The position numbers and the translations under genes are program-made. DNA of 64,000 nt, taken from Heterodontus francisci (Eukaryota). The notes beneath the pieces were generated by a model. It saw only the letters and a program-made list of their open reading frames with translations. It had not been told where the DNA came from and did no database searches. The DNA lies in assembly GCF_036365525.1 (NCBI RefSeq), contig NC_090406.1, positions 29,618,854-29,682,853 of the forward strand, read 5' to 3'. Shown piece after piece: positions 12,066-61,333 of this stretch (position 1 is the stretch's first letter; each line of letters begins with the position of its first letter).

Positions 12066-12087
12066 CACTTTACTTCTCTGACACTCT

Positions 12088-19090: not shown

Positions 19091-19542
19091 CTGAGATGGA
19101 TTTTAAGAAGCCCCCATGTCGGGTTCCAAGGCAGGGGGGCACCTGAAGTTGGCTCCAGTTGAGGCTCGCCATAGACCACGATGCCGGCAGGGCCTGGCCC
19201 GATCCTCCCGGCAGCGGCAAGGCACCACGGAGGCCCTCCCGCCGCTTGGCGACAGGACCACAATCACCACATTCAAATTAGTAAAATTAATGCATTTAGA
19301 TGTACTTACCTCAGATCTTGAGGGCCCACCTGCATGGGCACATGCAGCTGAGGCCATTTCCGGGGACGGACAGTCTACTCCCTCCATGTGATTGTGGGGG
19401 GGGGGGGGGGGGGGAGGGAGTGGCGGGCCCCCCCCCAACTATTTAAATGAGCCACCGCACTTAAGATTGCGGAAGCTGTTTGGTGTGTGGCCCACATGAG
19501 CAGGCCGCCATTTTTTGAGCTTGCCACCAAAATCCAGCACAC
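19091..19542. mobile_element. MITE-like element with imperfect TIRs
   Basis: Left end ATGGATTTT, right end AAAATCCAGC, GC-rich interior resembling 12088-12820. Confidence 0.4.
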
Positions 19543-20531
19543 TGTGTGCTGTCTGGTACTAGAGTAATCCAAGCAGTTTATAGCCTTTGCATGTTTTTAA
19601 GCTGGTTTAATGTGGCCCCTCTGAGTTTAATCAAAGTTTGTAATCTCCCTAAGGACAATCACTTCTGTGGATCTAATATAATTTTGGGGAAATGAGCATT
19701 GACAGACCAATGTTTCTTTACGATGGTATGAATATACAGCTACGTTGCCATGCAGCCGAGAGGACAATTCAGAGTACAATGTATTAATAGGATTGACTTA
19801 AGAATGCCTATTGTCAATTTCCATGGTAAAATGGTTACTCATGAATCTGATACTGTTCCTCATATTGGTATTACTCATTTGAACTCACTACTTTACAGAT
19901 GCAGGCCAGGTACTCTAGCAACTGAGTGTCCTACCCTTTGCAGAGTGTATGTAATCTTGGGATTAATCAGGATGTGTACCCCTATCTTGGTTGTGAAAAG
20001 CTGAGATGAAAATACAAGTATGTTGGAGTCAGCAAAAGGGCATGAAAGGTAGACTGTTTTCTTTGATAGTACACCCATGAGTCAAATTGTGAAAATAGGG
20101 AGGGGCAAAAAACATTTTAGAAGCTGTTTAACAGATCCATTAGAAAGAGCAGGCTCAGTGGGCTGAGTGGCTCTTCCTCTTCCATATATTCACAAAGGAT
20201 CTTTCTTTACTGTACCTGCTTCCTTCATACATCTCCTTCATTTTTTCCAGCTGAGTGAATAACAGTGCAAAGTTCTATAATAACATGATGACTCATCTAG
20301 AAAAGATCACGCTCACCTCAAGCCTTCAATTTTCCAGATTATTGACAGCATTACCTTTGTTAGGGCAACCTGAGCTGAACCAATTATATCGTGGCAACTG
20401 GGGTGGGCCGGTTGCGGGAGGGGGAGATTCTGTGCCTTGCTCAATAAAAACCTGAAGATCCCTGTTCCAGTATCCACGCATGTAGTTTGGAATAAAATGC
20501 AACCAATATTAATGATTTATAGTCACTTAAC

Positions 20532-23530
20532 CACAGAATTACAGAATCGTTACAGTGCAGAAGGAGGCCATTTGGCCCATCGTGTCCGCACTGCCTCTCT
20601 GAAAGAGCAATTCCCTTAGTTCCATTCCCCCTCCTTCTCCCCGTAACCCTGTACATTCTTCCTTTTCATATAACTATCTAATTCCCTTCTGAATGCTTCA
20701 ATTGAACCTGCCTCCGCCACGTTCTCAAGCAGCACATTCCAGATCTTAACCACTCGCTGCGTAAAAAAGTTTTTCCTCGTGTCACTTTTGCTTCTCTTAC
20801 CAAAAACTTTAAATCTGTGCCCTTTTGTTTTCGATCCTTTCACGAGTGGGAATAGTTTCTCTCTATCTACTTTGTCCAGACCCCTCATGATTTTGAATAC
20901 CTCTATCAAATCACCTCTTAGCCTTCTCTTCAAGGAAAACAGTCCTAACTTCTCCAATCTATCTGCATAACTGAAATTCCTCATCCCTGGAACCATTCTC
21001 GTGAATCTTTTCTGTACTCTCTCCAGTGCCCTCACGCCCTAAAGTGCGGCAAGAACTGGACGCAATACTCCAGCTAAGGCCAAACTAGTGTCTTATACAA
21101 GTTCAATGTTACTTCATTCCTCTTGTACTCTATGTTCCTATTAATAAAGCCCAGGATACTGTATGCTTTATTCACCACTCTTTCAACCTGTCCTGCCACC
21201 TTCAATGACTTATGCACATATACACCTAGGTCCCTCCACTCCTGCACCCTCTTTAGAATTGTATCCTTTATTTTATATTGTCTCTCCATTTTCTTCCTAC
21301 AAAAATTAATCACTTCACATTTCTCTGCATTGAACTTCATTTACCACCTGTCTGCCTATTCCACCAACTTGTTTATGTCCTTTTGAAGTCCTACACTATC
21401 CTCCTCACAGTTCACAATGCTTCCAAGTTTCATATCATCTGCAAACTTTGAAATTGTGCCCTGTACTCCAAGGTCTAGTCATTAATAGATATCAGGAAGA
21501 GCAAGGGTCCCAACACTGATCCCTGGGGAACTCCACTACAAACCTTCCTCCAGCCCAAAAAACATCCATTAACCACCACTCTTTTTTCCTGTCACTCAGC
21601 CAATTTTGTATTCATGTTGTTACCGTCCCTTTTATTCCATGAGCTACAAGTTTGCTCACAAGTCTGTTGTGTGGCACTGTATCAAACGCCTTTTGAAAGT
21701 CCATGTACACCACATCAACAGCATTGTCCTCATCAACCCTCTCTGTTACCTCCTCAAAAAACTCCAGCAAGTTAGTGAAACATGATTTTCCCTTACGAAA
21801 TCCATGCTGGCTTTCCTTAATTAACTCACATTTGTCCATGTGACTATTGATTTTGTCCCGAATTATTTTTTCTAGAAGTTTTCCCATCACTGAAGTTAAA
21901 CCCTCTGGCCTGTAGTTGCTGGGCTTATCTTTACACCCTTTTTTGAACAAGGGTGTAACGTTTGCAATTCTCCAGTCCTCTGGCACCACCCCGAGTCTAA
22001 GGAAGACTGAAAAATTATGACCAGTGTCTCTGCGATTTCCACCCTCACTTCTCTCTGTATCCTTGGATGCATCTCATCTGGTCCTGGTGCCTTATCCACT
22101 TTAAGTACAGACAGCCTATCTAATACTTCCTCTTTATCAATTTTAAACCCCTCTAGTGTCTGACTTACCTCCTCTTTCAACATTGCCTGGGTTGCATCTT
22201 CTTCTTTGGTAAAGACAGATGCAAAGTATTCATTTAATACCTCAGCTATGCCCTTTGCCTCCATGTGTAAATCCCCTTTCTGGTCCCTAATCGGCCCCAC
22301 TCCTCCTTTTACCACCCTTTTACTATTTATATGCCCATAGAAAACTTTGGGATTTCCTTTAATGCTAGCTGCCAGTCTCTTTTCATGTTCTCTCTTTGCT
22401 TCTCTTATTTGCTTTTTCACTTCCCCTCTGGACCTTCTAAATTCAGCCTGGTTCTCAATAGTATTTTCTACCTGACATCTGTAATAAGCACACCTTTTCT
22501 TCTTTATCTTAATCTCTACCTCTTTTGTCATCCATGGAGCTTTGGATTTGTTTGCCCTATTTTCCCCTTCGAGGGAACATACTTTGACTGTGCCCAAACT
22601 ATCTCTTCTTTGAAGGTAGCCCATTGTTCATCTACCGGTTTTCCTGCCAACTTTTGACTCCAATTTATTCACCCCGGCTCCATTCTTAATCCATTGAAGT
22701 TGTCCTTCCCCCAGTTAATTATTCTTACCCTGGATTGCTCTTTGTCCTTTTCCATAGTCAGCCTAAACCTTATGATACAATGATCACTGTCCCCTAAATG
22801 CTCTCCTACAGATACTTGATCCACTTGGCCACCTCATTCCCAAGAACCAGGTCTAGCAGTGCCTCCTTTCTCGTTGGACTAACAAAATACTGTTGTAGAA
22901 AATGTTCCTGAACACACTCTAGGAACTCTTGCCCCTCACTGCCCTTTATGCTAATATTATCCCAGTTTATGTTTGGATAATTAAAGTCCCCCATTATAGC
23001 TACCCTATAATTTTTGCACCTCTCTATAATTTCCTTGCGAATTTGTTCCTCCACGCCCTTCCCACTAGCTGGTGGCCTATAGACAACACCGAGCAATGTA
23101 ACCGCATCTTTTTTGTCCCTTAGCTCCAGCCAAATTGATTCTGTCCTTGACCCTTCTGTGACATCCTTTTTCTCCAGCACTGCAATACTCTCCTTAATCA
23201 ATACTGCCACCCTTCCCCCTTTTTTCCCTTTCCTATCTTTCCTAAACACCTTGTATCCAGGAATATTCAATACCCAATCCTGCCAATAGAGCCCCCAGGT
23301 CTCTATTATAGCCACAACATCATATTTCCACATGGCAAGCAATGCCAGTACCTCACCAGTCTTATTAACCACACTCCATGCATTCACATACATGAACATT
23401 AACCCTGATTCAGACTTTTTTACTTTCTCTCTTACTCTGACCACACCTAATAACTTACTCTTCCCTACTGTCGTGCTATCTATCTCCCTCAGTATTCTGT
23501 GCACCTTGGTATTCCTCTCTGATGCTTGCT
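20532..23530 (-). mobile_element. CR1 LINE with near-complete but frameshifted ORF2 (APE endonuclease + RT)
   Basis: MYVNAWSVVNK, DVVAIIETW, VYRPP, GDFNYP, LLDLV (endonuclease); KAPGPD, NYRP, QHGF, DFQKAFD (RT); 3' ATTCTGT-type tail near 20535. Confidence 0.92.
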
Positions 23531-23869
23531 CCTGGTTTCCACACCCCTGATAAGTTACCAGTTTTGCACCTCTCTGTAATTTCCCTCCAATCTGAGCTCC
23601 CTCTGAGGTTCTCATCCCTCTGTTGGTTCTGGCCTGAATCATTAGATTTCTGTTCTGGTCCCAAGAACAGACTGTCATATCTTGACCCAGCACAGCCTTC
23701 TTGAATATCCCTTTCTTCATAATCTCTTGGTGGGCTAAGATTTGTGAATTTTGCCTGTTTGAATGCTTGTCTGTCTTATTAAATTCTAAACCTCATTTTG
23801 ATTGCAGGTAATGGTATTTTGTAATTGCAGCTGTTATCTGAAGTCAACAGAACATTTCAGCTGCAGATG

Positions 23870-24900
23870 GGATGAGATAGGGGCAGAAATAGGCAATGTT
23901 ATGGAGCTGGAAGTGGGTGGTCTTCGTGATGGAGAGGATATGGGGTCAGTAGTTCAACTCAGGAGAGAATAGGATATAGAGGTGAAAAACAGTCTGATTC
24001 ACCCTCAGACATTGACCAGACGGCAATGCAGTGACAAGCGTGCAGAGTTTTTGATGGGACAAAGACAATGGCTTTAATCTTCACATTGATTAACTGGAAG
24101 AAATTGCATCTTAGTAAGAGTGGAGTCATGTGAAGGTAATTCCACTGAGTTGGAAAATGGAGGAGAGGCTTTGGAGGAAAATATAGTGGCCAACCATATC
24201 AATAGCTGTAGAAAAATGAGAAACATGAGGAGAAGTAAATGCACCATGGTCAGATTCAGAGAGGATGTCATTTACGATTTTTGTTAGGGATGTTTCAGTG
24301 ATTTTCCAGGGGTGGAAACCTAATTGCAGAGATTCAAGCATGGAAGTGCATAAAGCTGAGCATAGATTTGGCAGGCACAACCACATTCAATTACTTAGGA
24401 GGGGAAAGAGAGTTAGAAGATGAGGAACAGAGAGGATGAGATTTTCTTTCAGGAGGATCTCATGACGGTGATTTTGAAAGGAAGAAGGACAGTATCTCAG
24501 GACTGGGAACCATTTACAATGTCAATTAACATGGCGGACAAGAAGGGAAGTTGGGTTTCATGGTTGTGGAGTCAAGGAAGCAGAAACTGGGTCGCCTGGA
24601 CAAGAGCGGAGATAGGAAAGAAACTTGAGAAAGATATGGGTTCAGGGCTACGGCAGGGAAGAACTGGGGGAGAAAGTTTTGGCTTGGTGGCTAACAGGAA
24701 GTGGTGAAGCAGCAAAAGATGAATGGATAGTCTCAATCTTAATGATAAAGAGGTCCAGGAGTTCCTTCCACTTAGTTTTGAAGGTGAGAATGGTGCAGGG
24801 GAAGGGAAAATGGGTTCAAGGAGATGGTTGCTATTGGAGAAATGAAGCTAAGGGGCATCTTTGCTTTCCTGAGTGGTGGGCGGTTTTGGCAGAGGACTGT
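23870..24900 (-). mobile_element. Decayed L2-like LINE
   Basis: Minus frames give LESLQLGFHP..TETSLTKIVNDIL, L2 RT-like. Confidence 0.55.
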
Positions 24901-24944
24901 GAGACTGACAGTACTTGATGTGATTCTGCCCGATCTGGTGATTT

Positions 24945-25262
24945 TATTTATTTATTTATTTAGAGATACAGCATTGAAACAGGCCCTTCGGCCCACCGAG
25001 TCTGTGCCGACCAACAACCACCCATTTATACTAACCCTACAGTGTTCCCATATTCCCTACCACCTACCTACACGAGGGGCAGTTTACAACAGCCAATTTA
25101 CCTATCACTTGCAAGTCTTTGGCAGTGGGAGGAAACCGGAGCACCCGGCGAAAACCCACGCGGTCACAGGGAGAACTTGCAAACTGTGCACAGGCATTAC
25201 CCAGAATCGAACCCGGGTCCCTGGAGCTGTGAGGCTGCGGTGCTAACCACTGCGCCACTGTG
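24945..25262 (-). mobile_element. tRNA-derived SINE (HE1/V-SINE-like)
   Basis: Minus strand has A-box TGGCGCAGTGG and B-box GGTTCGATTCT, a central GTTTGCAAGTTCTCCCTGTG motif and a (TAAA)n tail. Highly similar to 47420-47775. Confidence 0.85.
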
Positions 25263-25441
25263 ATGTACAGCTCGACCAGTTGTATGAAAGATATGTTCAA
25301 GTCTGCGCCAGTTGGAGGCAATGACCATGATGGGAGAGAGCAGAGGTTTTGCTGGAGACATCAGAGATGGGGACAAGGGTGTGGTTGAGCAAACTCAAAG
25401 CTGCTTAAGTGATGAAGCGATTAAAGGACCATGAGCTCATT

Positions 25442-26115
25442 GAATGGTGGGGTCCTACTCTTTCCCTGGTTATCCTCTTCCTATTGATATACTTATAGAA
25501 TATCTTGGGATTTTTCCTACTTTTACCAGCTAGAGCTTTCTCATATCCCCTCTTTGCGCTCCTAATTGCTTTCTTAAGCTCCATCCTACACTTTCTGTAC
25601 TTCACTAATGCTTCCGTTGATTTGCTCTCCTTGTATTTGCTAAAAGCCTCTCTTTTCTTTCTCATTGTACCCTGAATGTTTCTGGTCATCTATGGTTCTC
25701 TGGGCTTGCTGCTCCTACCTATTAACTTAGAGGGAATATGTTGGGCCTGTACCCTCCCCATTTCCTTTTTGAATGCCCCCCACTGCCCTTTTGCAGATTT
25801 CCCGACAAGTAACTCTTTCCAATCTACCTTGGCCAGATCCTGCCTTATTTTACTAAAATTCGCTCTCCCCCAATCCAAAACCTTTTTTTGCAACTTGTCT
25901 ATTTCTTTCTCCATAACAAGCTTAAATTGTACCATGTTGTGGTCGCTATCACCAAAATGCTCCCCCACCAACACATCAACCACCTGTCCGGCTTCATTCC
26001 CCAGAATTAGGTCCAGCACTGCACCCTCCCTTGTTGGATCCTGTACATATTGAGCTAAAAAGTTCTCCTGTATACAATTTAAGAACTCCTCTCCATCTAA
26101 GCCCTTAACATGATC
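25442..26115 (-). mobile_element. CR1 endonuclease/tether segment, inverted relative to the adjacent CR1
   Basis: LDLILGNEAGQV..GDSDHN; KNPKIFYKYINRKRITRERVGP. Confidence 0.85.
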
Positions 26116-26124
26116 ACTATCCCA

Positions 26125-27220
26125 CCCTTCAAAATTGGCTTAGCTGTAGGAGACAGAGAGTGATGACAGACGGCTGTTTTAGTGACTGGAAGCCAGTGTC
26201 CAGTGGCGTACCACAGGGATCTGTGCTGGGTCCCCTATTGTTTGTCATTTATATAAACGACATAGATGACTATGTGGGGGATAGGATCAGTAAGTTCGCG
26301 GATGACACAAAGATTGGCCGAGTGTTTAACAGTGAGTTGGAGTGTCTTGGGTTACAGGAAGATATAGACGGGATGGTCAAATGGGCAGAAAAGTGGCAGA
26401 TGGAATTTAACCCTGAAAAGTGTGAGGTGATACACTTTGGAAGGAGTAATGTGACACGGAAGTATTCAATGAATGGCCTGACACTGGGAAGTTCCGAGCA
26501 ACAAAAGGACCTTGGCGTGTTTGTCCATAGATCTCTGAAGGCAGAAGGGCAGGTTAATAGGATGGTGAAAAAGGCATATGGGACACTTGCCTTTATCAAT
26601 CAAGGCAAGATTACAAAAGCAGGGAGGTCATGTTGGAGTTGTATAGAACTTTGGTAAGGCCACAGCTGGACTACTGTGTGCAATTCTGGTCACCACATTA
26701 TAGGAAGGATGTGATTGCACTGGAGGGGGTGTAGAGACGATTCACCAGGATGTTGCCTGGGATGGAACATTTAAGCTATGAAAAGAGGTTGGATAGGCTT
26801 GGGTTGTTTTCGCTGGAGCAGAGAAGACTGAGGGGTGACCTGATCGAGGTGTACAAGATTATGAGGGGCATGGACAGGGTGGATAGGGAGCAGCTGTTCC
26901 CCTTAGTTGAAGGGTCAGTTACGAGGGTCACAAGTTTAAGGTGAGGGGCAGGAGGTTTAAGGGGGATTTGAAGAAGAACTTTTTTACCCAGATGGTGGTG
27001 ATGGTCTGCAATGCACTGCTTGGGAGGGTGGTAGAGGCGGGTTGCCTCACAACCTTTAAAAAGTACCTGGATGAGCACTTGGCACATCATAACATTCAAG
27101 GCTATGGGCCAAGTGCTGGCAAATGGGATTAGGTAGACAGGTCAGGTGTCTTTAATGCAGTGGTGCAGACCCGATGGGCCGAAGGGCCTCTTCTGCACTG
27201 TATTATTCTGTGATTCTGTG
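26125..27220 (+). mobile_element. CR1 3' RT segment with intact 3' tail
   Basis: [21 protein letters not shown]; ends ATTCTGTGATTCTGTG, the CR1 octamer repeat. Confidence 0.92.
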
Positions 27221-27742
27221 AAAGGCTTGGTAATACAAGAACATTACATTGATTAATACCATCCCACTCTGGGAACACAAATCAAAGAACATGTGATTAA
27301 ATACTCTAATTTGAAAATGTTAAGATTTTAATTTTCTTTGCCCCAAATGTGACAACAAAAAGTGTAAAGAAGGTGCTCCCACTGTCCAGAATGTCTATAG
27401 TCCGAGTAGAAGCTAAAGTGAATGTCGTTCAACCTGCAGTCAACTGATTATGAAAATTAAGTAGTACTAAACCAACCTCACTGACAGTGGCCATCTTCTG
27501 TGATAATCTGTAGGCTTTATTCCCAATGCTGGGTTACTGGTGCCTTAAATGGGCCATGTTCTCAAATTCAGTTTAACAATGTCAAAGATGGTTGATAATT
27601 GTCCCTGGTATTTTCCTCCATTAATTTTAACTATTCCTGAAATGTGTTGTTTATAGATGAATTGTCTGATCCGTACTATTTCATAATGTTTAGTTTAGAA
27701 AACAATTTTATCATTACATCATTGTACAACAGGGTTGTACAA

Positions 27743-28428
27743 CAGGGTTGTCCAACCTTTCGCGTGAGGGGCCACATTACAATTTTTGTCTTACATAGGG
27801 GGCCGGTGAGACAATTTTGGAAAGATAAAGGCAGTAAAAATTTATCTTACTCTTAATCAAAGCAGCCAACAAATGTACATTTTGTGAAGAAGCTTTAAAT
27901 GAGAAAACTAATTTATTGACTTACTTTCTTGATCACTCTCTCTCTGTATCCCCCCTCTCTCTCTGTCCCTTCCTCTCTTTCCCCTCCCTCTCTGCCCTCT
28001 CCCTCTCTCTGCCTCCCTCCCTCTCTCTGTCCCTCCCTCTCTCCCTCAGAGAGTGGCAACACTCAGCAGATGGTTGATCAGGTTTTCTTTAAAACATCGC
28101 AAGTCAGTTTCGCTGCTGACAGTGGGAACAGCCATTCACCAACCGGACAGATTCAGGGTTTTCTGGCGAACTTTTAAAAAAACCCGAATCTGTCTGAAGT
28201 TTGGGGAACGGCTGTTCCCACTGTCAGCAGCTGTCAGCTGTGAAACTGACTTGCGATGTTTTTAAAAAGGCCGGTCTGCAAGAAGAAGACAAGGGGAAAT
28301 TTCCCATCTCCAGTCACTGAGACCTGGTGAGGATGAGGAACAGCCCCGGGTACAGTTTACACCCGCGGGCCAGATGGAAACCTTTGGCGGTGGATTCTGG
28401 CCCATGGGCCATATGTTGGACAACCCTG
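27743..28428. mobile_element. Non-autonomous hAT (Charlie-like) DNA transposon
   Basis: Perfect 14-bp TIRs CAGGGTTGTCCAAC / GTTGGACAACCCTG. 8-bp TSD TTGTACAA at 27735-27742 and 28429-28436. Confidence 0.9.
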
Positions 28429-28674
28429 TTGTACAATATCGGAATCACAGTATGGCACCAACTTGGATATCGTAAGGGAAACAGAGAGCCTGGTGTTTCT
28501 AATCTCAATACCAGTGTGAGCTGCTCCTAAAGCCCTGCATCTTTGTTTACATCCTGTTCTCCTGCAACAGTAGACAAGCTGTTTACATCATCTCTCAACT
28601 GATATGTTTACAATATCTCTTAATCAGCCAGACTCCTTAATAGTCTGGACATGATTGGGGTCGGGCAGACATAC

Positions 28675-28966
28675 CTTTTGTCAAGCAGTGTATTCCCACT
28701 TTCACCTTTGAGAAGTTCCCAATGCCAATCTCTCCCCGGAGTTGGTAAAATCCAATCCTTTTTCCAAGTATCAGTTCATTTTTCACTTCCTTGTTGTTCC
28801 TCATGTCATAAATAACTTTTTCAAAGGGTGTGAGTAATACGTTTTGCTTTTCTCCCTCCTCGTCATCATCCGTCTTGCATTGCACCAGCTGCTTAACACC
28901 TTCGGTCGGGCTGAGGTAACCCTTCAATCCCTCATTGTGAACAGAAAGCTTTGCTACAGCCATCAT
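28675..28966 (-). CDS. NIM1K: NIM1K-like kinase, coding exon 1 (the exon probably starts at an acceptor at 29360 and includes 5' UTR)
   Basis: MMAVAK..LTPFEKV..LGKRIGFYQLRGEIGIGNFSKVKVGIHCLTK; donor G|GTATG, phase 1. The three exons (292+269+750 nt) give 436 aa. Polypyrimidine tract + CAG acceptor at 29361. Confidence 0.92.
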
Positions 28967-34150: not shown

Positions 34151-34664
34151 GTTCAACAGGTCAGACCACCACCGATGCAAACCAGCAGATTGGCATCCCT
34201 AGTGATTCAGGCTGAGCAGATTAGAGTCTTGATGGTGCAGGCCAGCAGATCGGAGTGCCTACTAGTGACAGCTCATCTGACCTACCAGGAAAGAAGTCTC
34301 TTCCTAATTCTCTCACTCTGCTGCTGTTTGTTGTGCTCCAATTATTGGACACTTTTCCTGTGACCAAGCCTAGTGCTCAAGAGGAGCTGCAAAATTTCTA
34401 TCCTGTCCCAACATCACAATTACCAAAGCTGGACTGTAGCTACACTTGGAGCTGGCAATATAGTAACGGAATCATAAGTAATTGGTAGGTAAGAGTAGGA
34501 CTAAGCTTCAGATTTTTAATGGTTCTTGGTATCAGTAAAGAAGCTCCTTGTGTCACATTGTTCCATTAAGTGTCAAGCAATTTGGTAATTGAGTAATTTT
34601 AGCATTGAATTAAATTTGCTATCAGAGAGAAAATACCATGTCACAATTTCACAAGATTAGTTAC

Positions 34665-34956
34665 CTGTTTAATTGAATTTATGTAATTTCTCTTTCTTTT
34701 CCATCTGCTATAGCTTATGTCAATCTGTCGGTTCTGTCTTGCCCCGTTGCTTGAAGTGCCTTCGTCCCCTGCTTCAGTATCTTCTGATGTCCTTTGTTCC
34801 TGTGTCAGCTGCACATGGTGGAGTCTGGAAAGGGCTTCAACCACCAGCGAATGCTGTGAAGAACAGACAGCGATAAGACTCTTCACTGGGTTAATCTAAT
34901 TCAGTCACTGACAGTCTTAAGAAGGAGGATTAATGGAGTTACTTTTCCTTTTTATA
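34665..34956 (-). promoter_or_regulatory. Putative TATA promoter and non-coding first exon of the NIM1K-like gene
   Basis: Minus-strand TATAAAAA at 34956-34949 and a donor AAACAG|GTAAC at 34665/34664, in non-repetitive sequence. Confidence 0.5.
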
Positions 34957-35269
34957 TCTGGCCTGGTTACTCTTAACAGGATTTCAAGAATTACTGCCTG
35001 ACCTGAAATGATTCGGCTCCATTTATTAAAATGTTCCATTAGCGGAATCATTTCCTTTAACCAAATGTAGACGAGCATTTTACAACAACATGTCATGTGT
35101 TGCTGGCCATGCCCTACAATGCAAAGCTCCTGAAACCACTTCTCAGTGTCAATGCTTCATTTCTCACACAAAAACACCAGCTTACACTGTTATACCTTCA
35201 ACATAGAAAAATATGTTCTAAGGGGCTTCACAGGAGCATAATCAGACAAAACCCGACACAAAACAAAAG

Positions 35270-35536
35270 GGGGTGAAATTAATCCATGCCAGCACCGTGA
35301 AACAGGTTCGTAGCAAGTCGGGAGTTTTCATTTTTCATTGACTTGGAAAATATTGCCAAGATTTTTAATTTCAAATCAAGTAAAAGAGACAGTGGGACTA
35401 GGAAACAAGTCTCCAAAAAGAGTTTGAACAATTATTCTGTGAACTTAAGTGTAAAGAAGATTGGGCACGGTGAAAATTCGGCTGCCGATTCGCTACAAGC
35501 CTGTTTCGCGCTGCTGGCATAGACCAATTCCACCTT
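35270..35536. mobile_element. Palindromic MITE-like element
   Basis: Imperfect inverted ends GGTGAAATT..ATGCCAGCA..GAAACAGG..GTAGC versus GCTAC..CCTGTTTC..TGCTGGCAT..AATTCCACC. Confidence 0.65.
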
Positions 35537-36043
35537 TGAGATTTTAGGAGGCGATGACAAAAAGCTTGACCAAAGAGGTGTGTAGTAAGGAGTGTATATA
35601 AAGTAGAAGAAGGTGAAGAACTTTAGAAAAAGAATTTCAAAGCTTAGGGCCTAGATGACTGAAGACAGGGCCACCAATATTGGGACAAAGTGAATCAGAG
35701 TGCACAAAAGCCAGAGCTGAAGGAACATGTGAGTTTTTTGTGTGTGTCAGTCCCCACTTCTCCCACAAAGATGCGCATATTTTTTTGGGTACACTTTTGT
35801 GTGTATATGTAATACCCATTCAAATCGTGTGTCTGTCTGTTTTATAACGTTCCTTGAGACATTTTACTACTTTGAAGGTACTACATAATAAAAGTTGTTT
35901 TTGTTGTTCACTTCTACCACTACAGTGTGTTTGGGGACCCAGATATACTTGTCTCCACCCCATGCTTTAAGTTCCTGTCCTGGCCTCTCTTTGGCAAACT
36001 CTTTCATCAGAGAGGCTGGGTCCACCATCTCTAATGCCATATG

Positions 36044-38218
36044 GAATAAAGACAAGAAATGCTGGAAATACTCAGCAGGTCTGGCAGCATCTGTGGAGAG
36101 AGAAGCAGAGTTAACGTTTCAGGTCAGTGACCCTTCTTCAGAACTAGCAGATATCAGAAATGTGAAAGGTTTTAAGCAAGAAAAGTAGGGATGGGGCAAG
36201 AGATAACAAAGGAGAAGGTGTAGATAGGACAAGGTCACAGAGAATAACCGACCAGAAGGTCATGGAGCAAAGGCAAACAATATGTTAATGGTGTGTTGAA
36301 AGACAAAGCATTAGTACAGAATAGGTGTTAACGGACTGAATATTGAACAGCCACAAGTACAAACATGAAAAAAAGTGGGTAGGCAAACTGAACAAACTAA
36401 GATAAAATAAAATAAAACAAACACAGAAAAAATATGAGAGCGGGGAGAGAGTTGAAATGGCAAGCAACTGGAAGCTCGGGGTCATGCTTTCAGACTGAGT
36501 GGAAGTGTTCCGCAAAGCAGTCACCCAGTCTGCGTTTGGTCTCCCCAATGTTGAGGAGACCACATTGTGAGCAGCGAATGCAGTATGCTACACTGAAAGA
36601 AGTACAAGTAAATTGCTGCTTCACCTGAAAGGAGTGTTTGGGGCCAGGGATAGTGAGGAGAGAGGAGGTAAATGGGCAGCTATTACACCTCCTGCGATTG
36701 CAGGGGAAGGTGCCATGGGAAGGGGACGAGGTGGTGGGGATAATGGAGGAGTGGATCAGGGTGTCACGGAGGGAACGATCCCTTCGGAATGCTGACAGGG
36801 GAAGGGAGGGGAAGACGCATTTGGTAGTGGCATCACGCTGGAGGTGGCGGAAATGGCGGAGGATGATCCTTGGGTTATGGAGGCTGATGGGGTGGAAATT
36901 GAGGACAAGGGGAACCCTGTCAAGGTTCTGGGAGGGAGAGGAAGGGGTGAGGGTAGAGGTGCGGGAAATGGGTCGGACACGGTTGAGGGCCCTGTCAACC
37001 ACAATGGGGGGGAATCCTCGGTTCAGGAAAAAGGAAGACATATCAGAAGCGCTATCATGGAAGGTAGCATCATCAGAGCGGATGCGTCGGAGATGGAGAA
37101 ACTGGGAGAATGGAATGGAGTCCTTACAGGAGGCAGGGTGTGAAGAAGTGTAGTCGAGGGAGCTGTGGGAGTATGTGGGCTTATAATGAATATTAGTAGA
37201 CAGCCTACCCCCAGAGATGGAGACAGAGAAGTCGAGGAAGGGGAAGGAAGTGTCAGAGATGGACCATGTAAAGGTGAGAGAAGGGTGGAAATTAGAAGCA
37301 AAGTTGATAAAAGTTTTCCAGTTCGGGGTGGGAGCAGGAAATAGCACCGATACAGTCATGAATGTACTGGAAAAAAAAGTTGGGGGAAGGGGCCTGAGTA
37401 GGACTGGAGCAAGGAATGTTCGACATATCCCGCAAAAAGACAGGCATAACTAGGACCCATGCGGGTACCCATAGCAACACCCTTTACTTGAAGGAACTGA
37501 GTGGAGTTGAAGGAGAAGTTGTTCAATGTGAGAACAAGTTCAGCCAAGTGGAGGAGGATGGTGGTGGATGGGGAATGGTTGGGCCTCTGTTCAAGGAAGA
37601 AGCAGAGAGCCCTCAAATCGTCCTGGTGGAAGATGGAGGTGTAGAGATATTGGACGTCCATAGTGAAGAGGAGGTGGTTGGGGCCAGGAAACTGGAAATT
37701 GTCAAAATGATGTAGGGCGTCAGAAGAGTCACGGATGTAGGTGGGAAGAGACTGGACCAGCGGCGAAAAGATAGAGTCAAGATAGGAAGAAATAGGTTCA
37801 GTGGGGCAGGAGCAGGCTGACACAATGGGTCTGCCGGGACAGTCCTGTTTGTGGATTTTGGGAAGGAGGTAGAAGCGGGCTGTCTGGGGTTGCTGGACTT
37901 TGAGGTTGGAAGCTGTAGAGGGAAGATCTCCAGAGGAGATGAGGTCACTGACAGTCCTACAGTCCTGTGGACAATCGCTTGAGGTTCGGTGGTGGGGTGG
38001 TGGTCCAGAGGAAGGGAGGAAGAAGTGTCTGAAAGTTGGCGCTGAGCCTCTACAAGGTAAAGATCGGTACGCCATTCAACAACAACTCTTGTCTGCAGGT
38101 TTGATGACCATGTTGGGGTTAGACCTGAGAGAACGGAGTGCCTCAAGTACAGAGGGGGACAGGTTAGAGTGAGTAAGGGGGGCAGAGAAATTGAGATGAC
38201 CAATGTCTCGCTGACAGT
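36044..38218 (-). mobile_element. Penelope-like retroelement (Neptune type), 5'-truncated, RT + GIY-YIG
   Basis: YLLPKIHK, PGRPIVS, TMDVQYLYTSI, GVAMGTRMGPSYA, YIHD, CNRRRCNSC linker, YCIRC..NIGETKRRL..EH. 14-bp TSD TCTAATGCCATATG at 36030-36043 and 38219-38232. Confidence 0.93.
36109..36145 (-). ncRNA. Minimal type I hammerhead ribozyme motif (intact core)
   Basis: Minus strand AGTT-CTGAAGA-A-GGGTC-ACT-GACCT-GAAA-CGT-T-AACT: stem I AGUU/AACU, CUGANGA, stem II, GAAA, palindromic ACGU in place of stem III, predicted cleavage after GUU. Confidence 0.8.
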
Positions 38219-38533
38219 TCTAATGCCATATGACCAGGATGAATCTAGTGTTCAGCTTTACAATGTATGTGGAACCCACCAGGGAAATCAGAAGCAGGAT
38301 TTTTACCTAGTCAGGTTGTCGTTACTATAAAAGGAGATGATCCAACTGTGTCCCAGCACTTATTGAGATCAGGTCATTAATGGCCTTTCAAGTGGCTATC
38401 CAGCATCACCTTTTCCATATACATCCCACCACAGGCACTGGCCACTGCCATTTAAATAAGGTGATTTCCCCCTGACACCAGATATTCTGAAGCAGCAGGC
38501 CCATGTATTTTCAGGGCTTTTTTTTTAGAACTT

Positions 38534-42794: not shown

Positions 42795-42975
42795 CTTTAT
42801 TCTCTTCCCCACCAACCGCCCCCCCCCCACTTTCACTTGCTTAAAGCCTAATTCTTTTCTAACCTTTGCAGTTCTGATGAAAGGTCACAGACCTGAAACA
42901 TTAATTCTGCTTCTCTCTCCACAGATGCTGCCAGACCTGCTGAGTATTTCTAGCACTTTCTGTTTTTATTTCATA
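42795..42975 (+). mobile_element. Solo Penelope terminal (pLTR) fragment carrying a hammerhead motif at 42870-42906
   Basis: AGTT-CTGATGA-A-AGGTC-ACA-GACCT-GAAA-CAT-T-AATT followed by CACAGATGCTGCCAGACCTGCTGAGT, which is shared with the Penelope ends. Confidence 0.75.
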
Positions 42976-43979: not shown

Positions 43980-44218
43980 AACCTGATTGGTGCAAAGTCT
44001 GTGTCAAGAATCATGCTGCGCGATCTGATTGGACCAATGGCCAATCTGTTCTATTATTGGTCAATTTACTTGACCAGTGCTTTCGCAACCCCTGTTGTGA
44101 TTGGGGAAGGTCGTTCTCCAATTCTGTGCTATGATTGGCGGAGGGAGTGATTGACGGGAGACAGTGCGTTATGATTGGCTGTTCTGGACTTGCGCCCTGG
44201 AAGGCGGGAAGGCTGGTG
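43980..44218 (+). promoter_or_regulatory. POLE4 promoter: CCAAT-box cluster plus E2F-like site
   Basis: CCAAT/ATTGG at 43986, 44028, 44034, 44041, 44056, 44100, 44118, 44134 and 44174. GGCGGGAA at 44203-44210. CpG-rich, no TATA box. Confidence 0.75.
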
Positions 44219-44437
44219 ATGGAGGAGCAGCAGAACCCAACGGCGGCAGTGGAGCCGGGCCAAAGCCCACAGTTGGAGGCCGAGGCTGAAGTGGAGAGGC
44301 CCGGCTCTGCCCCGCTCCCTGGGCTGCAGCAGAAACTGCTCCGGTTGCCACTGAGCCGAATCAAGGGGCTGATGAAGGCCGATCCCGAAGTATCACTGGC
44401 GAGTCAGGAGGCCGTGTTCGCCATCGGCAAAGCCACG
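44219..44437 (+). CDS. POLE4: DNA polymerase epsilon subunit 4, exon 1
   Basis: MEEQQ..RLPLSRIKGLMKADPEVSLASQEAVFAIGKAT, the start of the histone fold; donor ACG|GTGAG. Confidence 0.92.
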
Positions 44438-44659
44438 GTGAGTGTGTGCCGAGCGACCCCGGGGATCCCGACCCAGCCCAGAGCAGCAACAGCCCGTCTG
44501 AGGTTCTGACTGGCAGCGTTGGAGGCCGCCGGTCCTTCCTGCGTTTCAGTCACCGTCTCCAGGGGGTAAAACTCCAGTATTGACGGATCTTTGCCTGCGT
44601 TTGTAGTTTTGGTCCTGAATCCCCCCACGATAGAATGGCTTTGGAGGGAGTGTATTATT

Positions 44660-45075
44660 ATTACCAGAATAACACCTGGACTCCAAATGTTAAATTGTGA
44701 GGAGAGATTACACAAATTAGCCTTGTATTCCTTGGAATTCAGAAAATTAAGGGGTAGAGGGACAGAAACTTTTGGCTAGTTGAGGAGTCTAGGATTGGGG
44801 CATAGTCAAAGAAAATTAGAGCCAGAGCTTTTAGGAGTGAAGTTAGGAAACATTTCACACAAAGGATGGTAGAAGTTTTTGGACTCTCTCAAATTGCAAT
44901 TGATGCTAATTGCATCAATTTTAAAACTGAGTTTTTTTTCCTTAACCAAAGGTATTAAGGGATATGAGGCAAAGACACGGTGATGGAGTTAGTTGACTGT
45001 GATCAGCTGTGATCTCATTGAATGGTGGAATAGGCTTTGAGCGGCTAAATGTTCTTCTACTGTTCCTTTGTACTC
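44660..45075 (+). mobile_element. Degenerate CR1 3' fragment
   Basis: TRITPGL..EERLHKLALYSLEFRKLRG; CR1-like 3' UTR. Confidence 0.75.
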
Positions 45076-45237
45076 TTGCACTCAAATAGTCACCCTGTGC
45101 ATGTTGGCATGGGGCAGCCCAGTGGCACCTCTAGAAAGGGGCTCCCTCTACTCGCTGAAGTCAATCATAACTCATTCCCCTGGTGCTGTGGATTTGCTGC
45201 CTCCTTTTCACCTTTACCAAGGCTTGGATATTTTCCT

Positions 45238-47374
45238 AAAATAAAAGCAAAATACTGCGGATGCTGGAAATCTGAAATAAAAACAAGAAATGCTGGAACC
45301 ACTCAGCAGGTCTGGCAGCATCTGTGGAATGAGAAGCAGAGTTCATGTTTCGGCTCAGTGACCCTTCTTCGGAACTGACAAATATTAGAAAAGTCACAGG
45401 TTATAAGCAAGTGAGGTGGGGGTGGGGCAAGAGATAACAAAGGAGGTCTAGATTGGACCAGGCCACATAGCTGACCAAAAGGTCATGGAGCAAAGGCAAA
45501 CAATATGTTAATGGTGTGTTGGAAGACAAAGCATTAGTACAGATTAGGTGTAAATACACTGAATATTGAACAGCAGCAAGTGCAAACCTGAAAAAAAACA
45601 GTGGGTAAGCAAACTGAACAAACTAAGATGAAATGAAATAAATGCAAAAACAAGATTGTACAAAAGAATGTAAAAAAAAAAGAAAAAATAACTAAAAATG
45701 AAAATAAAATGGGGGGCTGTCATGCTCTGAAATTATTGAACTCAATGTTCAGTCCGGCAGGCTGTAGTGTGCCTAATCGGTAGATGAGATGCTGTTCCTC
45801 GAGCTTGCGTTGATGTTCACTGGAACACTGCAGCAATCCCAGGACAGAGATGTGAGCATGAGAGCAAGGGGGGAGTGTTGATGAATGTATCGGTGCCGTT
45901 TCCTGCTCCCGCCCCGAACTAGAAAACTTTATCAACTTTGCTTCCAATTTTCACCCTTCTCCCACCTTTACATGGTCCATCTCTGACACTTCCCTTCCCT
46001 TCCTCGACTTCTCTGTCTCCATCTCTGGGGATAGGTTGTCTACCAATATCCATTATAAGCCCACCGACTCCCACAGCTACCTCGACTACACTTCTTCACA
46101 CCCTACCTCCTGTAAGGACTCCATTCCATTCTCCCAGTTTCTCCGTCTCCGACGCATCTGCTCTGATGATGCTCCCTTCCATGACGGTGCTTCTGATATG
46201 ACCTCCTTTTTCCTCAACCGAGGATTTCCCCCCACTGTGGTTGACAGGGCCCTCAACCGTGTCCGACCCATTTCCCGCACCTCTACCCTCACCCCTTCCC
46301 CTCCCTCCCAGAACCGTGACAGGGTTCCCCTTGTCCTCACTTTTCATCCCACCAGCCTCCATATCCAAAGGATCATCCTCTGCCATTTTCGCCACCTCCA
46401 GCGTGATGCCACTACCAGTCGCATCTTCCCCTCCCTTCCCCTGTCAGCATTCCGAAGGGATCGTTCCCTCCGCGACACCCTGGTCCACTCCTCCATTACC
46501 CCCACCACCTCGTCCCCGTCCCAGGGCACCTTCCCCTGCAATCGCAGGAGGTGTAATACCTGCCCATTTACCTCCTCTCTCCTCACTATCCCAGGCCCCA
46601 AACACTCCTTTCAGGTGAAGCAGCGATTTACTTGTACTTCTTTCAATGTAGTATACTGTATTCGCTGCTCACAATGTGGTCTCCTCTACATTGGGGAGAC
46701 CAAGCGCAGACTGGGTGACCGCTTTACGGAACACCTCCGCTCAGTCTGCAAGCAGGACCCTGAGCTTCCGGTTGCTTGCCATTTCAACACTCCCCCCCTG
46801 CTCTCATGCTCACATCTCTGTCCTGGGATTGCTGCAGTGTTCCAGTGAACATCAACGCAAGCTCGAGGAACAGCATCTCATCTACCGATTAGGCACACTA
46901 CAGCCTGCCGGACTGAACATTGAGTTCAATAATTTCAGAGCATGACAGCCCCCCATTTTATTTTCATTTTTAGTTATTTTTTCTTCCTTTTTATTTTACA
47001 TTCTTTTTTACATTTTTTACAATCTTTTTTTTGCATTTATTTCATTTCATCTTAGTTTGTTCAGTTTGCTTACCCACTGTTTTTTTTCAGGTTTGCACTT
47101 GTATTTACACCTAATCTGTACTAATGCTTTGTCTTTCAAAACACCATTAACATATTGTTTGCCTTTGCTCCATGACCTTTTGGTCAGCTATGTGCCCTGG
47201 TCCAATCTAGACCTCCTTTGTTATCTCTTGCCCCACCCCCACCTCACTTGCTTATAACCTGTGACTTTTCTAATATTTGTCAGTTCCGAAGAAGGGTCTC
47301 TGATCCGAAACGTTAACTCTGCTTCTCATTCCACAGATGCTGCCAGACCTGCTGAGTGGTTCCAGCATTTCTTG
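45238..47374 (+). mobile_element. Penelope-like element with inverted 5' pLTR, in POLE4 intron 1
   Basis: 45881-46945 encodes the RT thumb, CNRRRCNTC and GIY-YIG (VVYCIRC..YIGETKRRL..EH). About 45282-45880 is an inverted copy of about 46786-47375. 14-bp TSD TTGGATATTTTCCT at 45224-45237 and 47375-47388. Confidence 0.93.
47282..47318 (+). ncRNA. Minimal hammerhead ribozyme motif (CCGAAGA core variant)
   Basis: AGTT-CCGAAGA-A-GGGTC-TCT-GATCC-GAAA-CGT-T-AACT. The mirror copy at 45340-45376 (minus) has GAAA-CAT-G. Confidence 0.7.
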
Positions 47375-47419
47375 TTGGATATTTTCCTTATGTCCCAGTT
47401 ACCAGACTGTTGTATTTTA

Positions 47420-47775
47420 GTTTTTTTTTTAAGAGATACAGCACTGAAACAGGCCCTTCGGCCCACCGATTCTGTGCCAACCATCAACCACCCATTTATA
47501 CTAATCCTACACTAATCCCATATTCCTATCACATCCCCACCTGTCCCTATATATTTCCCTACCACCTACCTATACGAGGGGCAATTTATAATGGCCAATT
47601 AACCTATCAACCTGCAAGTCTTTGGCATGTGGGAGGAAACCGGAGCACCCGGAGGAAACCCACGCAGACACAGGGAGAACTTGCAAACTCCGCACAGGCA
47701 GTACCCAGAATCGAACCCGGGTCCCTGGAGCTGTGAGACTGCGGTGCTGACCACTGCGCCACTGTGCCGCCCCTG
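47420..47775 (-). mobile_element. tRNA-derived SINE (HE1/V-SINE-like)
   Basis: Minus strand GGGCGGCACAGTGGCGCAGTGG...GGTTCGATTCT; highly similar to 24945-25262. Confidence 0.85.
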
Positions 47776-48349
47776 TTTATAGATAACAGTAAAATGTCCC
47801 AACAACAGACAAAAAAATTGACATTGAACTGAAGATTTTAAGACAAGTGACTAAAAGCTTGGTCAAAAAGTAGGTTTTAAGGAAGGTAGAGAGAAGTTTG
47901 GGGAGGAAATTTGAATTTAGATCCTTGACAGCTGAAGTTGTGCCTCCCCCCCCCCCCCCCCCCCCCCGCCCCCAACCAGCTGCTTGTTTTGGGGGAGGGG
48001 GGCAGTGTGTAAAATTCCAGCCATGGTGTCTTGGCATGTTCCTAATGTCAGGAGGGCAGAGATGCTGTGAAGGTAATCCATCCTGTTGGCAGCTGTATAG
48101 AGGCAGACACAACTTGGATGCTGCCAGCAGCTGCTGCTACTAGTGCCAATATATTTCTCCTATCAGGTTACCTTCCTGGTTAATTAACTGTTGTGAACTG
48201 TTGCAATGTACCAACTCTACCACTCTTTCCAAGCATCGTTTCTGTGGAATCTGCATGCATGCAGTTGGTTCACATAGAACACAGTCACCATGATGGCTGG
48301 TAACCAATAGAATTACTGACTAATGGGCACAGTATAAGTGAACAACGAT

Positions 48350-48685
48350 AACTTTTATTTTTATATGGCTTATTTAACATAAAGCGTCTGAAGGCGCTTC
48401 ATAGGAGCGTTATAAAGCAAAATTTGTCACCGAGCCACACATGGTAATATTAGGGCAGATAAACAAAGTACTGGGTTTTAAGGAGTGTCTTTAAAGGAAG
48501 GTGGAGAAGTCGACAGGCAAAGAGGTTTATGGAGGGAATTCCAGAGCTTGGGGCCTAGGCAGCTGAAGGCATAGCCATCAATAGTGGAGTAATTAAAATT
48601 AGGGATACTCGAGACCAGAAATAGATGAGTTGTGGGGCTGGAGAAGATGGGAGGGGCGAGGCCATGGAGGGATTTGAAAATAAAT
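48350..48685 (-). mobile_element. L2-like 3' end
   Basis: FKSLHGLAPP..AFSCLGPKLWNSL on the minus strand. Confidence 0.7.
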
Positions 48686-49639
48686 GTCACACTTGTGGGA
48701 AGTGCAGTGATGGAAATACAAAAATAAACTGGAGTGTTATTTTAAAAAGACAACTTAAAAGACTGGTACACTTGCCTTCAGCAAGATGGAGGATAAAGTC
48801 ACATGACATACACCTTCCCCTGCACTGAAATGCACATTCATGTCTACCAGAACTAAAATTCATGAACCCTGACTGCAATAAAAGTATAGACACCTCAGTT
48901 TACATGGATGTGTGCTATTTACAAAAATGAGCTAAAATAAAGGCACACTCAGATGCCCCATATCCAACTACAATAAAGTGTGAAAATACCTCATCTTATC
49001 AAAGTAGATTGGCATCAGAAGCTATTGTGTAGCCCTTCAGGAACTGAAACCTAAAGTTCCATGGACAAGACTAACACTTAGTGAGTTTACCTTTTAAAGG
49101 TAACCTTTTTTGGAGAACGTCAAGACATCAGCCAGAGATCTCTAGCAAGGGAGAACATCGAAAGCCATCTACAATTCCAGCACAAGGCTGAGAGAGAGAT
49201 CAATTCCAGTGAAGACAGTTGAACCCTGCTGAGACGAGTTTGCAACCAACTGCAGCAGAAAAATGAGAGTGACTTTTAAACAACTCCACCTGTGAAAATT
49301 GAACCACAAAATGTCAGCACTGTCTTCAAACTGAAGCGTTGACAGCTAGAAGATTTCAACATCCTAGCAAATGCAAGACAACCAGCAAACAGGCCTGCAA
49401 CTTTAAAAACTTATCTTTCAAAAGGATCCCACAAACTTTTACACCTTGAACTCTTAACACCTCCTACCCTATACTTTCTCCCTATCTTTAATGTGCATGT
49501 GATAGTGTATGATGTTGCAATCATTTCAGGTGATATTCAATAAATATTTAATCTTCTGTTTCAAGTCAGTGGGAAAACCTATCACGACCTGTTAATTTGG
49601 CAAACAAAGCACAAGGGCTGAAACGCTAGTTTGAGAAAA

Positions 49640-50461
49640 ATGCTGTCTGCGGTGTTCTGCAGGCCCCACCTGCCAAGAATAAGGCACAGTAATTTCACCA
49701 CATGGACATTAAATTTCAAATTGTTGCTGGGAAGAAAAGGCCTGTAACAAGAAGTTGCCAGGCCCCTGGCTGGAAAGACATTTTTGCATATTAACAGTGC
49801 GTGGAACAAAGGAGCTATCCCCTGCTCCAATACAATCCACAAACCGATGTGGTCAAACCAGTTAGTCACATGACTGACCTGATTTAGCAGTCTGGGTTTT
49901 TTTCTGAATTGTATAGTTTTGAACAGAGTCTGCAGAACGCAGAATGCTCCTGGACTGAAGAAGATTACCTCTCCTGCCTGTCTGTTCCCATCTCTTCCTC
50001 ACGGAACTCCAAAACCCACTGAAGACACATGCACCCCAAGAGAAAAGTCTCCTACAGCGAACAAGGTTTAAGAAGAATACTGGGCCCCAACAAAAAGCAA
50101 GATTTAAGTACAATCAAGGACTCTACGGTGAGCTCGAAGACCCGTAACAAAAACTCTTCAGATATTGGCTCAGACTTTTTCACTTTTTTTCTTTTTCTCT
50201 ATCTGCACGTGTATCGCCTATGCGTGCTAGCATGGGCGTTAACCGAATTAGAGTTGAAGTTTAATAAATTTCAGTTTTCTTTAAACCTACGACCACCTGT
50301 TTGTACTGGTTTCTTTGATCACCACTTTCCAATTATAAGGCAATGATTCACCAAGGGGGAGCCAAAAACCTGCTTGTGTTTAAAATTTAAACCCTGTTAC
50401 AGTAAGACCAGGTGAAGGCTGAAAGGGAACCCTAGACCCCCCCTCTCACCTGATCGTAACA
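49640..50461 (+). mobile_element. Possible solo-LTR-like fragment
   Basis: Ends CTCACCTGATCGTAACA (LTR-like ..CA end) with AATAAA at about 50263. Left TG end not identified. Confidence 0.35.
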
Positions 50462-50826
50462 GCAGTCAGTTGGGAGGTGACAAGCAAAAACCAACCACCC
50501 CATTTCCCAGTTGCCTGTAACACTAGGATGAGAATTTTGAAATTCAGTCATTACTCTGCCTGAGTTTGTATAATCATTTAATCTCTGGTATTAAACAGTG
50601 ACATTGATCATCTTGCAAAAGAGTGGATTAATGAAGCTTTAGACTTAAGAAAAGCTTTCATCTTGGCTCCTGTATTATTTATTACTGAGGCAAAGGTAAC
50701 TTTCCTCCTTGAGGCAGGGTATAGTGGGCTGCCTGAAGTGCTGGGCCTGATTAGGAAAGAGACTAGAGATGTGTGGGGCCTATTGGAAGTATGTATTGGG
50801 CCACATGGAGAGGGAGGATAAACTAG

Positions 50827-51030
50827 GCAATCTGGGTATCCCAATGACTGGACAATGAATGCAATCTGGGTATCCCAAAGACTGGACAATGAATGCAATC
50901 TGGGTATCCCAAAGACTGGACAATGAATGCAATCTGGGTATCCCAAAGACTGAACCATGAATGCAATCTGGGTATCCCAAAGACTGAACCATGAATGCAA
51001 TCTGGGTATCGCAATGACTGAACAATGAAT
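50827..51030. repeat. 34-bp minisatellite, 6 copies
   Basis: Unit GCAATCTGGGTATCCCAAAGACTGGACAATGAAT starting at 50827, 50861, 50895, 50929, 50963 and 50997. Confidence 0.97.
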
Positions 51031-51047
51031 GTGGTTTCTCCTGACAG

Positions 51048-51132
51048 GAGCTGTTTGTTGAAGTAATCGCAAAGGATGCGTACACGTACGCTCTACAAGG
51101 AAAGCGGAAAACTATCCAACGGAAGGACGTGG
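51048..51132 (+). CDS. POLE4: POLE4 exon 2
   Basis: ctgacag|GAG; ELFVEVIAKDAYTYALQGKRKTIQRKDV; G|GTGAG. Confidence 0.93.
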
Positions 51133-51251
51133 GTGAGTCTGCCAGCAGCTTCTGTTATGCCAGACTTGTACTGAGTTGTCAGAGCATACATCAGGGCCTT
51201 TGTGGGATTATAATGTGTGTGTGAGGGGCTAGGTTTTGAAGTGTTGAGCTA

Positions 51252-51349
51252 AGCTGGAGTTCAGGGGCGGTTGCTTCAGTGAGATAGTTGTGGTTTTGAT
51301 AGCTGGAGTTCAGGGGCGGTTGCTTCAGTGAGATAGTTGTGGTTTTGAT
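51252..51349. repeat. Exact 49-bp tandem duplication
   Basis: AGCTGGAGTTCAGGGGCGGTTGCTTCAGTGAGATAGTTGTGGTTTTGAT, two copies. Confidence 0.95.
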
Positions 51350-51394
51350 TTGATTTCCATGTTGCTGAATGATGCCTTTTTATTTCTCTTTCAG

Positions 51395-51436
51395 ATACTG
51401 CAGTTGATGCCACGGATGAATTTGCATTTTTGGAAG
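51395..51436 (+). CDS. POLE4: POLE4 exon 3
   Basis: ttcag|AT; (D)TAVDATDEFAFLE; G|GTAAA. Confidence 0.92.
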
Positions 51437-51919
51437 GTAAATGCTTCCTCCCTCTGCTTAGCAACAAGTAATCTTTATGGTAGCTGTTTTCTCTTGATCC
51501 TACTACCATTACTTCCTACTTAGTTTCCTCATAATTCATGGACATTGTCATCAGGACAGGAGTGTAGGAAACTGATCATGTAACTTTTATTGCTTTGTGC
51601 TCACCCAGTAGAGGAGGTATTGCTGCTGCAAGGTGCAGCAGACAGTTAGTTACCTTGAATTGAGGTACTAATGTGAAGGCTCAAACTTGTTGAATTACAC
51701 AAACTATCTGTGCTGTTGTTAATCTTCCATATGATCAATGGTATCATCATGTGCCCACCCTGTTTCCTCAACCACCTATCTAATCTGTTCTTGAATGTTG
51801 GCATGATCCCATTGCCAATCAGATTCTGGGAGTACATTCCACAGCTTCACAGTTTTTTTTTAAAGTCCTAAATCTCTTGCATTTTAATCTTTTTTTATGT
51901 CCACTTGATCAGGACACGC

Positions 51920-61227: not shown

Positions 61228-61333
61228 CTGCATGAGAAAGATTTAAAAAAACGGGAAGGTAAGTGAGGCTGAGTGAGGGGGGGTTGCCAGGAACAATCTC
61301 CAACACTCTTCACTACATGGGACAGGCTCTCAC

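Follow-up and report, generated by a model that had tools for sequence, protein, structure and literature searches.

A hammerhead ribozyme motif that looks intact and lies upstream of a putative kinase promoter raises the question of whether it acts in its present place, for the host or for the element that brought it, or whether it is a passenger. We addressed this question for a motif on the minus strand (36109..36145) of a 64,000-bp window of the genome of the shark Heterodontus francisci. Based on its sequence, its predicted fold, a descriptor search against shuffled sequences, and 4,362 exact copies in the genome, the motif was assigned to the minimal type I hammerheads and, within its family, to subfamily B, which has U at core position 4 (U4) and a G·U pair closing stem II.

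On the minus strand, the 5′ strand of stem I (36142..36145, paired with 36112..36109) is followed by core positions C3 to A9 with one additional unpaired A (36134..36141), a stem II of five pairs with a three-base loop (36121..36133), and a segment (36113..36120) that holds G12 to A15.1, a self-complementary stretch replacing stem III, and the GUU triplet. The fold given in the first-pass annotation of this DNA (stem I AGUU/AACU, CUGAAGA, stem II GGGUC/GACCU, GAAA, and GUU) can be read directly in the sequence. The palindrome that it placed at the site of stem III is indeed self-complementary, but is six bases long (36118..36113) rather than the four reported (ACGU). Two other features had been passed over, namely, the unpaired A at 36134, which separates core A9 from stem II and corresponds to an extra base described previously (PMC4209133), and the closing pair 10.1-11.1, which is G·U instead of the usual G-C. 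Based on hammerhead numbering, the cut is predicted between 36113 and 36112.

The core matches the pattern CUGANGA ... GAAA ... NUH, with every position canonical. Helix I has four pairs, helix II has five, helix III is absent, and position 15.2-16.2 is a C-G pair within the six-base palindrome. These features agree with the earlier identification of the motif as the known minimal hammerhead of Penelope-like elements. The descriptor search that had been suggested (core, both stems, self-complementary 15.2-16.2, and U or C at position 4) gave two matches in the window (36109-36145 and 47282-47318) and none in 200 dinucleotide shuffles; no Rfam family matched anywhere in the 64-kb window at gathering scores. 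The isolated 37-mer folds into stems I and II (-5.9 kcal/mol) and is not unusually stable (z = 0.02 versus shuffles). Starting from the 3′ end of the motif, the minus strand at 36114..36091 resembles a 3′ splice site, with a word similar to a branch point, then a pyrimidine tract, and then CAG and ATG; the pyrimidine tract competes with the ribozyme fold.

The closest published relatives (Cervera and De la Pena, 2014; PMC4209133) are the minimal hammerheads in the pseudo-LTRs (pLTRs) of metazoan Penelope-like elements. According to the descriptions in that work, they share with the shark motif the type I topology without stem III, a 4-bp helix I, an extra base between A9 and 10.1, a self-complementary 15.2-16.2, the position in a pLTR, and the occurrence mostly as single dispersed copies of truncated elements. 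Its Latimeria, Xenopus, and cichlid rows include G·U and A-U closing pairs, as in the shark family, and its supplement file 2 has no shark row.

The motif belongs to a 5′-truncated Penelope-like insertion of 2,175 bp (36044..38218, minus) that is 92-93% identical to an intact unit found at another locus (L151). This insertion is flanked on the minus strand by a 14-bp target-site duplication (5′ copy at 38219..38232 and 3′ copy at 36030..36043). As had been proposed, the motif is at the 3′ end of the element, where it sits in the 3′ pLTR (about 36440..36044, minus), 66 bases from the 3′ end of the insertion. Compared with the 916-codon ORF of the intact relative, the insertion begins at codon 278. 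Its alignment shows nine gaps, of which several are frameshifts; codon 852 is a stop; and ~200 bp that cover the end of the endonuclease region and of the ORF are deleted. The locus has a single motif and no tandem array, and a Pfam search found nothing in the window's own Penelope-like fragments. The sequence indicates that this copy is unable to encode its own protein and carries one ribozyme only. Animal non-LTR retrozymes, which have been reported from one chondrichthyan genome (bioRxiv 10.64898/2026.07.22.740005), have a type I hammerhead related to those of Penelope-like pLTRs; each unit of their short, non-coding tandem repeats is described as carrying a ribozyme, whereas the window has a single motif on a 2.2-kb coding remnant.

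The intact relative has three minus-strand motifs (at 8580, 5290, and 2000 of L151, i.e., 3,290 bp apart) in head-to-tail units. The two units between the motifs are identical, with a 916-aa ORF, and the hammerhead has C at core position 4 (hereafter C4, or U4C as a change). Based on these sequences, the family looks recently active. The ORF has matches to RVT_1 (E = 6e-6) and to a C-terminal GIY-YIG domain (E = 0.0018), both under the curated Pfam cut-offs, and a CX2-5CxxC linker and CCHH motif at residues 782-790, 822-828, and 845-863. By the criteria of Craig et al. (2021; PMC8557442), the linker and CCHH motif point to an EN+ element of the Neptune/Nematis type, a typing made by motifs. 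The order of RT and C-terminal GIY-YIG, the linker, the CCHH motif, the pLTRs, and the presence of tandem and inverted copies (tandem motifs in L151 and inverted pairs among the sampled loci) are as described for those elements; the difference is that the clade of the shark family is assigned by motifs, with Pfam matches under curated cut-offs. The anole element PAc (PMC11167929) is likewise reported as an endonuclease-positive Penelope-like element with a pLTR hammerhead and tandem intact units. However, PAc belongs to the Penelope/Poseidon clade and its ORF starts inside the ribozyme, whereas the ORF of the intact shark unit starts 173 bases from the first base of the motif. In addition, the PAc ribozyme was assayed in vitro, whereas the shark motif is described here by its sequence and predicted fold.

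Six copies of the family were found in the 64-kb window. The nearest on the same strand (45340..45376, minus) is 9.2 kb upstream of the motif and has a damaged palindrome and damage in both stems. A second truncated element (about 45.9-47.4 kb) has at its 3′ end the copy at 47282..47318 (plus), which has a C4 core, and the copy at 42870..42906 (plus) is an older one with an A-U closing pair and a damaged palindrome. With 45270-47375 taken as its extent, the second truncated element, of the C4 type, carries a 5′ inverted pLTR, its two motifs are at 45376 (minus) and 47282 (plus), and it is located inside an intron of a plus-strand gene.

Across the 6.0-Gb genome, exact matches to the 37-mer number 4,362 (reversed control: 0), and matches rise to 15,633 when one mismatch is allowed. 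The commonest form has C4 and a G-C closing pair (23,220 identical copies); the same form with U7 has 2,525 copies, and a form with U4, U7, and an A-U closing pair has 1,668. With overlaps removed, direct counting gives a floor of 44,035 near-identical motifs, most of which share the palindrome. This number greatly exceeds the 4,000-9,000 reported in coelacanth and frog (PMC4209133). A sample of 57 stretches chosen by position (622,853 bases, including the window and its neighborhood) contained 60 flank matches and 15 descriptor matches, nine of them U4. Extrapolation of the flank matches gives about 5.8 × 10^5 copies; this sample is ~3 times richer in exact motifs than expected from the genome-wide counts, and we give the rough total as 1 × 10^5 to 6 × 10^5. 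Copies starting within 3 bases of the first base of the motif, as stubs or inverted junctions, were seen at 7/30 A, 10/30 B, and 8/30 C loci, all chosen for a whole motif, such that starts at the cut site are invisible in this tally. Around another locus (L154 and neighboring places, C1 22.61-22.65 Mb), six C4 motifs have spacings alternating between ~5.8 and ~6.3 kb, which suggests a larger tandem duplication that carries the motif.

These counts bear on whether the canonical core at 36 kb is what it seems. Its appearance could be an accident of CpG decay from the common C4 form, in which case the motif would never have been functional in its present form. The commonest form has a CpG at both of the sites where the two differ, an A-type flank was found in 2/30 B loci, and one of the four B-type rows in our tree nests among the C4 copies. 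However, the mirror-image product of double decay occurs 56 times as opposed to 4,362, both repeats of single insertions are of the B form (at loci chosen for that form), and the window copy is flanked by B-type sequence and falls outside the C4 clade in the tree. We regard an accidental origin as extremely improbable, and the ratio of 56 to 4,362 together with the tree position speaks strongly against CpG decay as the source of this core. Because of the same ratio, the form of the window copy is, on sequence evidence, one that was amplified as a subfamily. In the youngest wave, single changes at the core CpG are nearly symmetric (1,083 restore U4 and 933 destroy G5).

The subfamilies appear to be of different ages. 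Within-class ORF distances are 0.026 for A, 0.029 for A′, 0.074 for B, and 0.157 for C (first 30 exact matches per class from one contig, with at least 200 ORF bases in 15, 12, 8, and 13 of these, respectively). A midpoint-rooted tree of the 35 rows with at least 450 bases in an 800-base region is a ladder, with C first, then three of the four B rows and the window copy, and then A and A′. The young clade, which also holds one B row, has support of 98/90, and the deeper forks are weak. From these ages and the weakly rooted tree, the closing pair 10.1-11.1 likely changed from A-U to G·U to G-C, with U4C arising in the last wave.

For covariation, we aligned the 33 full-length copies (25 distinct rows) among the 60 sampled matches, after dropping 27 that were truncated or too diverged. 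The extra unpaired A is invariant (33/33), and 88.9% of cells pair. Two of the nine pairs change on both sides, nearly always at 10.1-11.1 and never in stem I; two such pairs were reached by 31/500 shuffles, and the changes amount essentially to one inherited event. Among the distinct rows, 10.1-11.1 is G-C in 10, A-U in nine, G·U in five, and unpaired in one. This pattern fits selection acting on master elements, yet comes down to that one event.

Once copies are inserted, their core and flank decay at about the same rate. Mismatches numbered 10/297 in the core and 40/891 in the flank of the 33 position-sampled copies (p = 0.50), and 24/639 and 98/1,917 in a set of 71 copies (p = 0.20); both rates are biased low, as copies with >8 mismatches were dropped and the flank served as the search anchor. 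The test is small and pools the family, and selection on one copy lies outside its reach. The end branch of the window copy (0.051) gives a probability of about 0.15 that 37 bases stay unchanged, and the intactness of the motif needs no special cause. Because 4,362 identical copies exist and ~15% of copies of this age are expected to be unchanged by chance, intactness carries little weight as a sign of function. A domesticated host hammerhead would be expected to be single-copy, to be conserved beyond neutral DNA, and to fold as a monomer; in contrast, the window motif has 4,362 copies, no stem III, and no excess of core conservation in the family.

The first-pass annotation described the motif as intact and possibly competent. 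The canonical core and the correct fold of the isolated 37-mer support this description; what speaks against it is that the copy has no dimer partner or protein in cis and that its intactness is expected by chance. By analogy with published relatives (PMC4209133; PMC11167929), competence would need a dimer partner and probably the protein of the element. The minimal hammerheads assayed in PMC4209133 showed no cleavage as monomers and weak cleavage as dimers. For PAc, the ribozyme is reported to cut only with the element protein and to be dispensable for insertion in vitro, and no RNA-seq ends were reported at its cut site (PMC11167929). Among flank-anchored matches from ~59 kb before to 40 kb after the window, we found no intact same-strand partner except one ~71 kb away, beyond the kinase gene.

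Predicted folding depends on the context. With ViennaRNA, whose energy model lacks the core tertiary contacts such that its figures are hints, the probability of stem I is 0.73 for the motif alone and drops to ≤0.01 once 30-300 bases are added on each side. If the RNA instead begins at the motif and extends 30-60 bases downstream of it, stem I has a probability of 0.14-0.26 in the window copy and 0.5 in the intact unit. Because of this dependence on flanks, the fold would be favored in an RNA that starts at the motif and disfavored in read-through RNA, and the same applies to the master. No RNA record is listed across 34550-35550. In three sequencing runs of the same sample (available as contigs only and guessed to be RNA), the kinase coding exon, most of the putative first exon, and the unique DNA just past the motif had no cover. 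The very deep cover of the motif in these runs represents the whole family and is not assignable to the window copy.

A copy with no selected role could still be cut occasionally, if stray or intronic RNA paired in trans with another family copy or received protein from intact elements. The at least 44,035 near-identical motifs, most of which share the palindrome, and the existence of intact ORFs would provide such partners. However, at -8.5 kcal/mol, the predicted active dimer is less stable than two monomers (-11.8) and than an inactive duplex (-20.8), and published dimer rates are low (PMC4209133); we consider such cutting unlikely. Stem II (36121-36133) is nearly self-complementary between two molecules, and the inactive duplex that it may form is predicted to be more stable than the active dimer.

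The remaining question is whether the motif serves its neighbor. The minus-strand kinase gene has its first coding exon at 28675..28963 (coding start at 28963) and later coding exons near 18.6-18.9 kb and 10.0-10.8 kb. Motifs in single-copy DNA suggest a TATA box (34956..34951, minus) and a non-coding first exon (34665..34956, minus; GT donor at 34664) that has one match in the genome. The last exon is 100% identical to a 435-aa H. francisci protein named NIM1-like. Other shark proteins group with it at 80-84% identity, and a second shark set and tetrapod NIM1 are at 52-59%. The gene was previously given as a putative NIM1K; the protein is named NIM1-like and, by these two groups, looks like a second paralog and not NIM1K itself. 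The gene (9995-28963, minus) is likely a NIM1 paralog that cartilaginous fishes have in addition to the set with greater similarity to tetrapod NIM1. The distance of 1.2 kb to the start site given earlier corresponds to 1,158 bases from the cut site to the putative TATA box, although the start itself is putative.

A possible host role is that of a co-opted insulator or terminator, in which the copy would cleave read-through transcripts ahead of the NIM1-like promoter. In favor of this role, the core is canonical, and the motif shares the strand of the kinase gene, with a TATA-like box in single-copy DNA 1,158 bases downstream of it. However, it has no partner in cis, its predicted fold is lost in the read-through context, and its intactness is expected by chance. 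In addition, the first host gene found upstream (44.1-51.4 kb) is on the opposite strand, the next same-strand gene ends ~20 kb away, and with six family copies in 64 kb, one near a promoter is unremarkable. Because the putative TATA box at 34956 lies downstream of the motif, the motif would be outside the kinase transcript on that reading. The suggestion that it cuts read-through transcripts into the kinase is not supported, given its place upstream of the putative promoter and the stem I probability of ≤0.01 with flanks, and we find both co-option and any regulation of the kinase by the motif very unlikely. A dimer-dependent ribozyme guarding a vertebrate promoter would be notable if real, and nothing that we found points to one. 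Regarding the neighboring genes, the plus-strand one at 44135-51450 is small, encodes a histone fold (we take it to be POLE4-like), and runs away from the kinase gene, and the minus-strand one at 56119-61619 belongs to the TGF-beta family (Pfam TGF_beta and propeptide).

The reading that we hold with high confidence is that the motif is the hammerhead of a very abundant Penelope-like retrotransposon, located in the 3′ terminal repeat of a truncated and broken copy, and likely an inert passenger at this locus. Where the elements are intact and in tandem, the RNA that the motif would cut, after GUU, is that of the element itself; judging from published relatives, two motifs likely act together through the palindrome, probably assisted by the element protein. 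The window copy arrived as a single 5′-truncated insertion, as the target-site duplication and broken ORF show, and has since drifted by ~5% without detectable selection on its core. Its intact look was presumably inherited from the subfamily master and survived by chance. Three points weigh on the other side. The canonical core and the correct fold of the 37-mer make it plausible that a short RNA would be cleaved in vitro as a dimer; the intact unit also folds poorly in context, such that the fold test does not distinguish the window copy; and the many other copies could supply partners and protein in trans.

The motif class has already been published, and this locus, as one of thousands of identical remnants, matters little alone. 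The fresher point is the family, with its successive changes of the closing pair of stem II and a youngest, largest wave that has U4C; C at core position 4 is present in no core of supplement file 2 of PMC4209133. The role of the Penelope hammerhead is described as still open (PMC8557442). Our literature search found no shark or U4C Penelope hammerhead and found U4C only in a viroid; such forms may already appear in Lunse et al. (RNA Biol 14:1499) or in supplement file 1 of PMC4209133.

The viroid hammerhead has tertiary contacts. As cited in Perreault et al. (2011; PMC3088659), its U4C form is a natural variant with considerably lower activity in vitro, yet sufficient in vivo. The core change is the same as that of the youngest shark wave, and the likeness extends to sister copies only, not to the window copy; the viroid hammerhead differs in having a full stem III.

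One tentative possibility, which we think is less probable than its opposite, is that the ribozyme was retuned wave by wave. The core change carried by the latest and largest burst (>25,000 identical motifs, with intact tandem elements among them) is reported to weaken cleavage, and weaker or no self-cutting may have accompanied or favored the spread of this burst, with uncut RNA as the template. If so, the window copy would be a snapshot of the G·U stage, and the three forms would be a natural allelic series on what the hammerhead does for Penelope elements. Descriptors that demand CUGANGA miss the largest wave of this family. Among the natural and datable variants offered by this recently active family, it is the most successful one that deviates from the canonical core.
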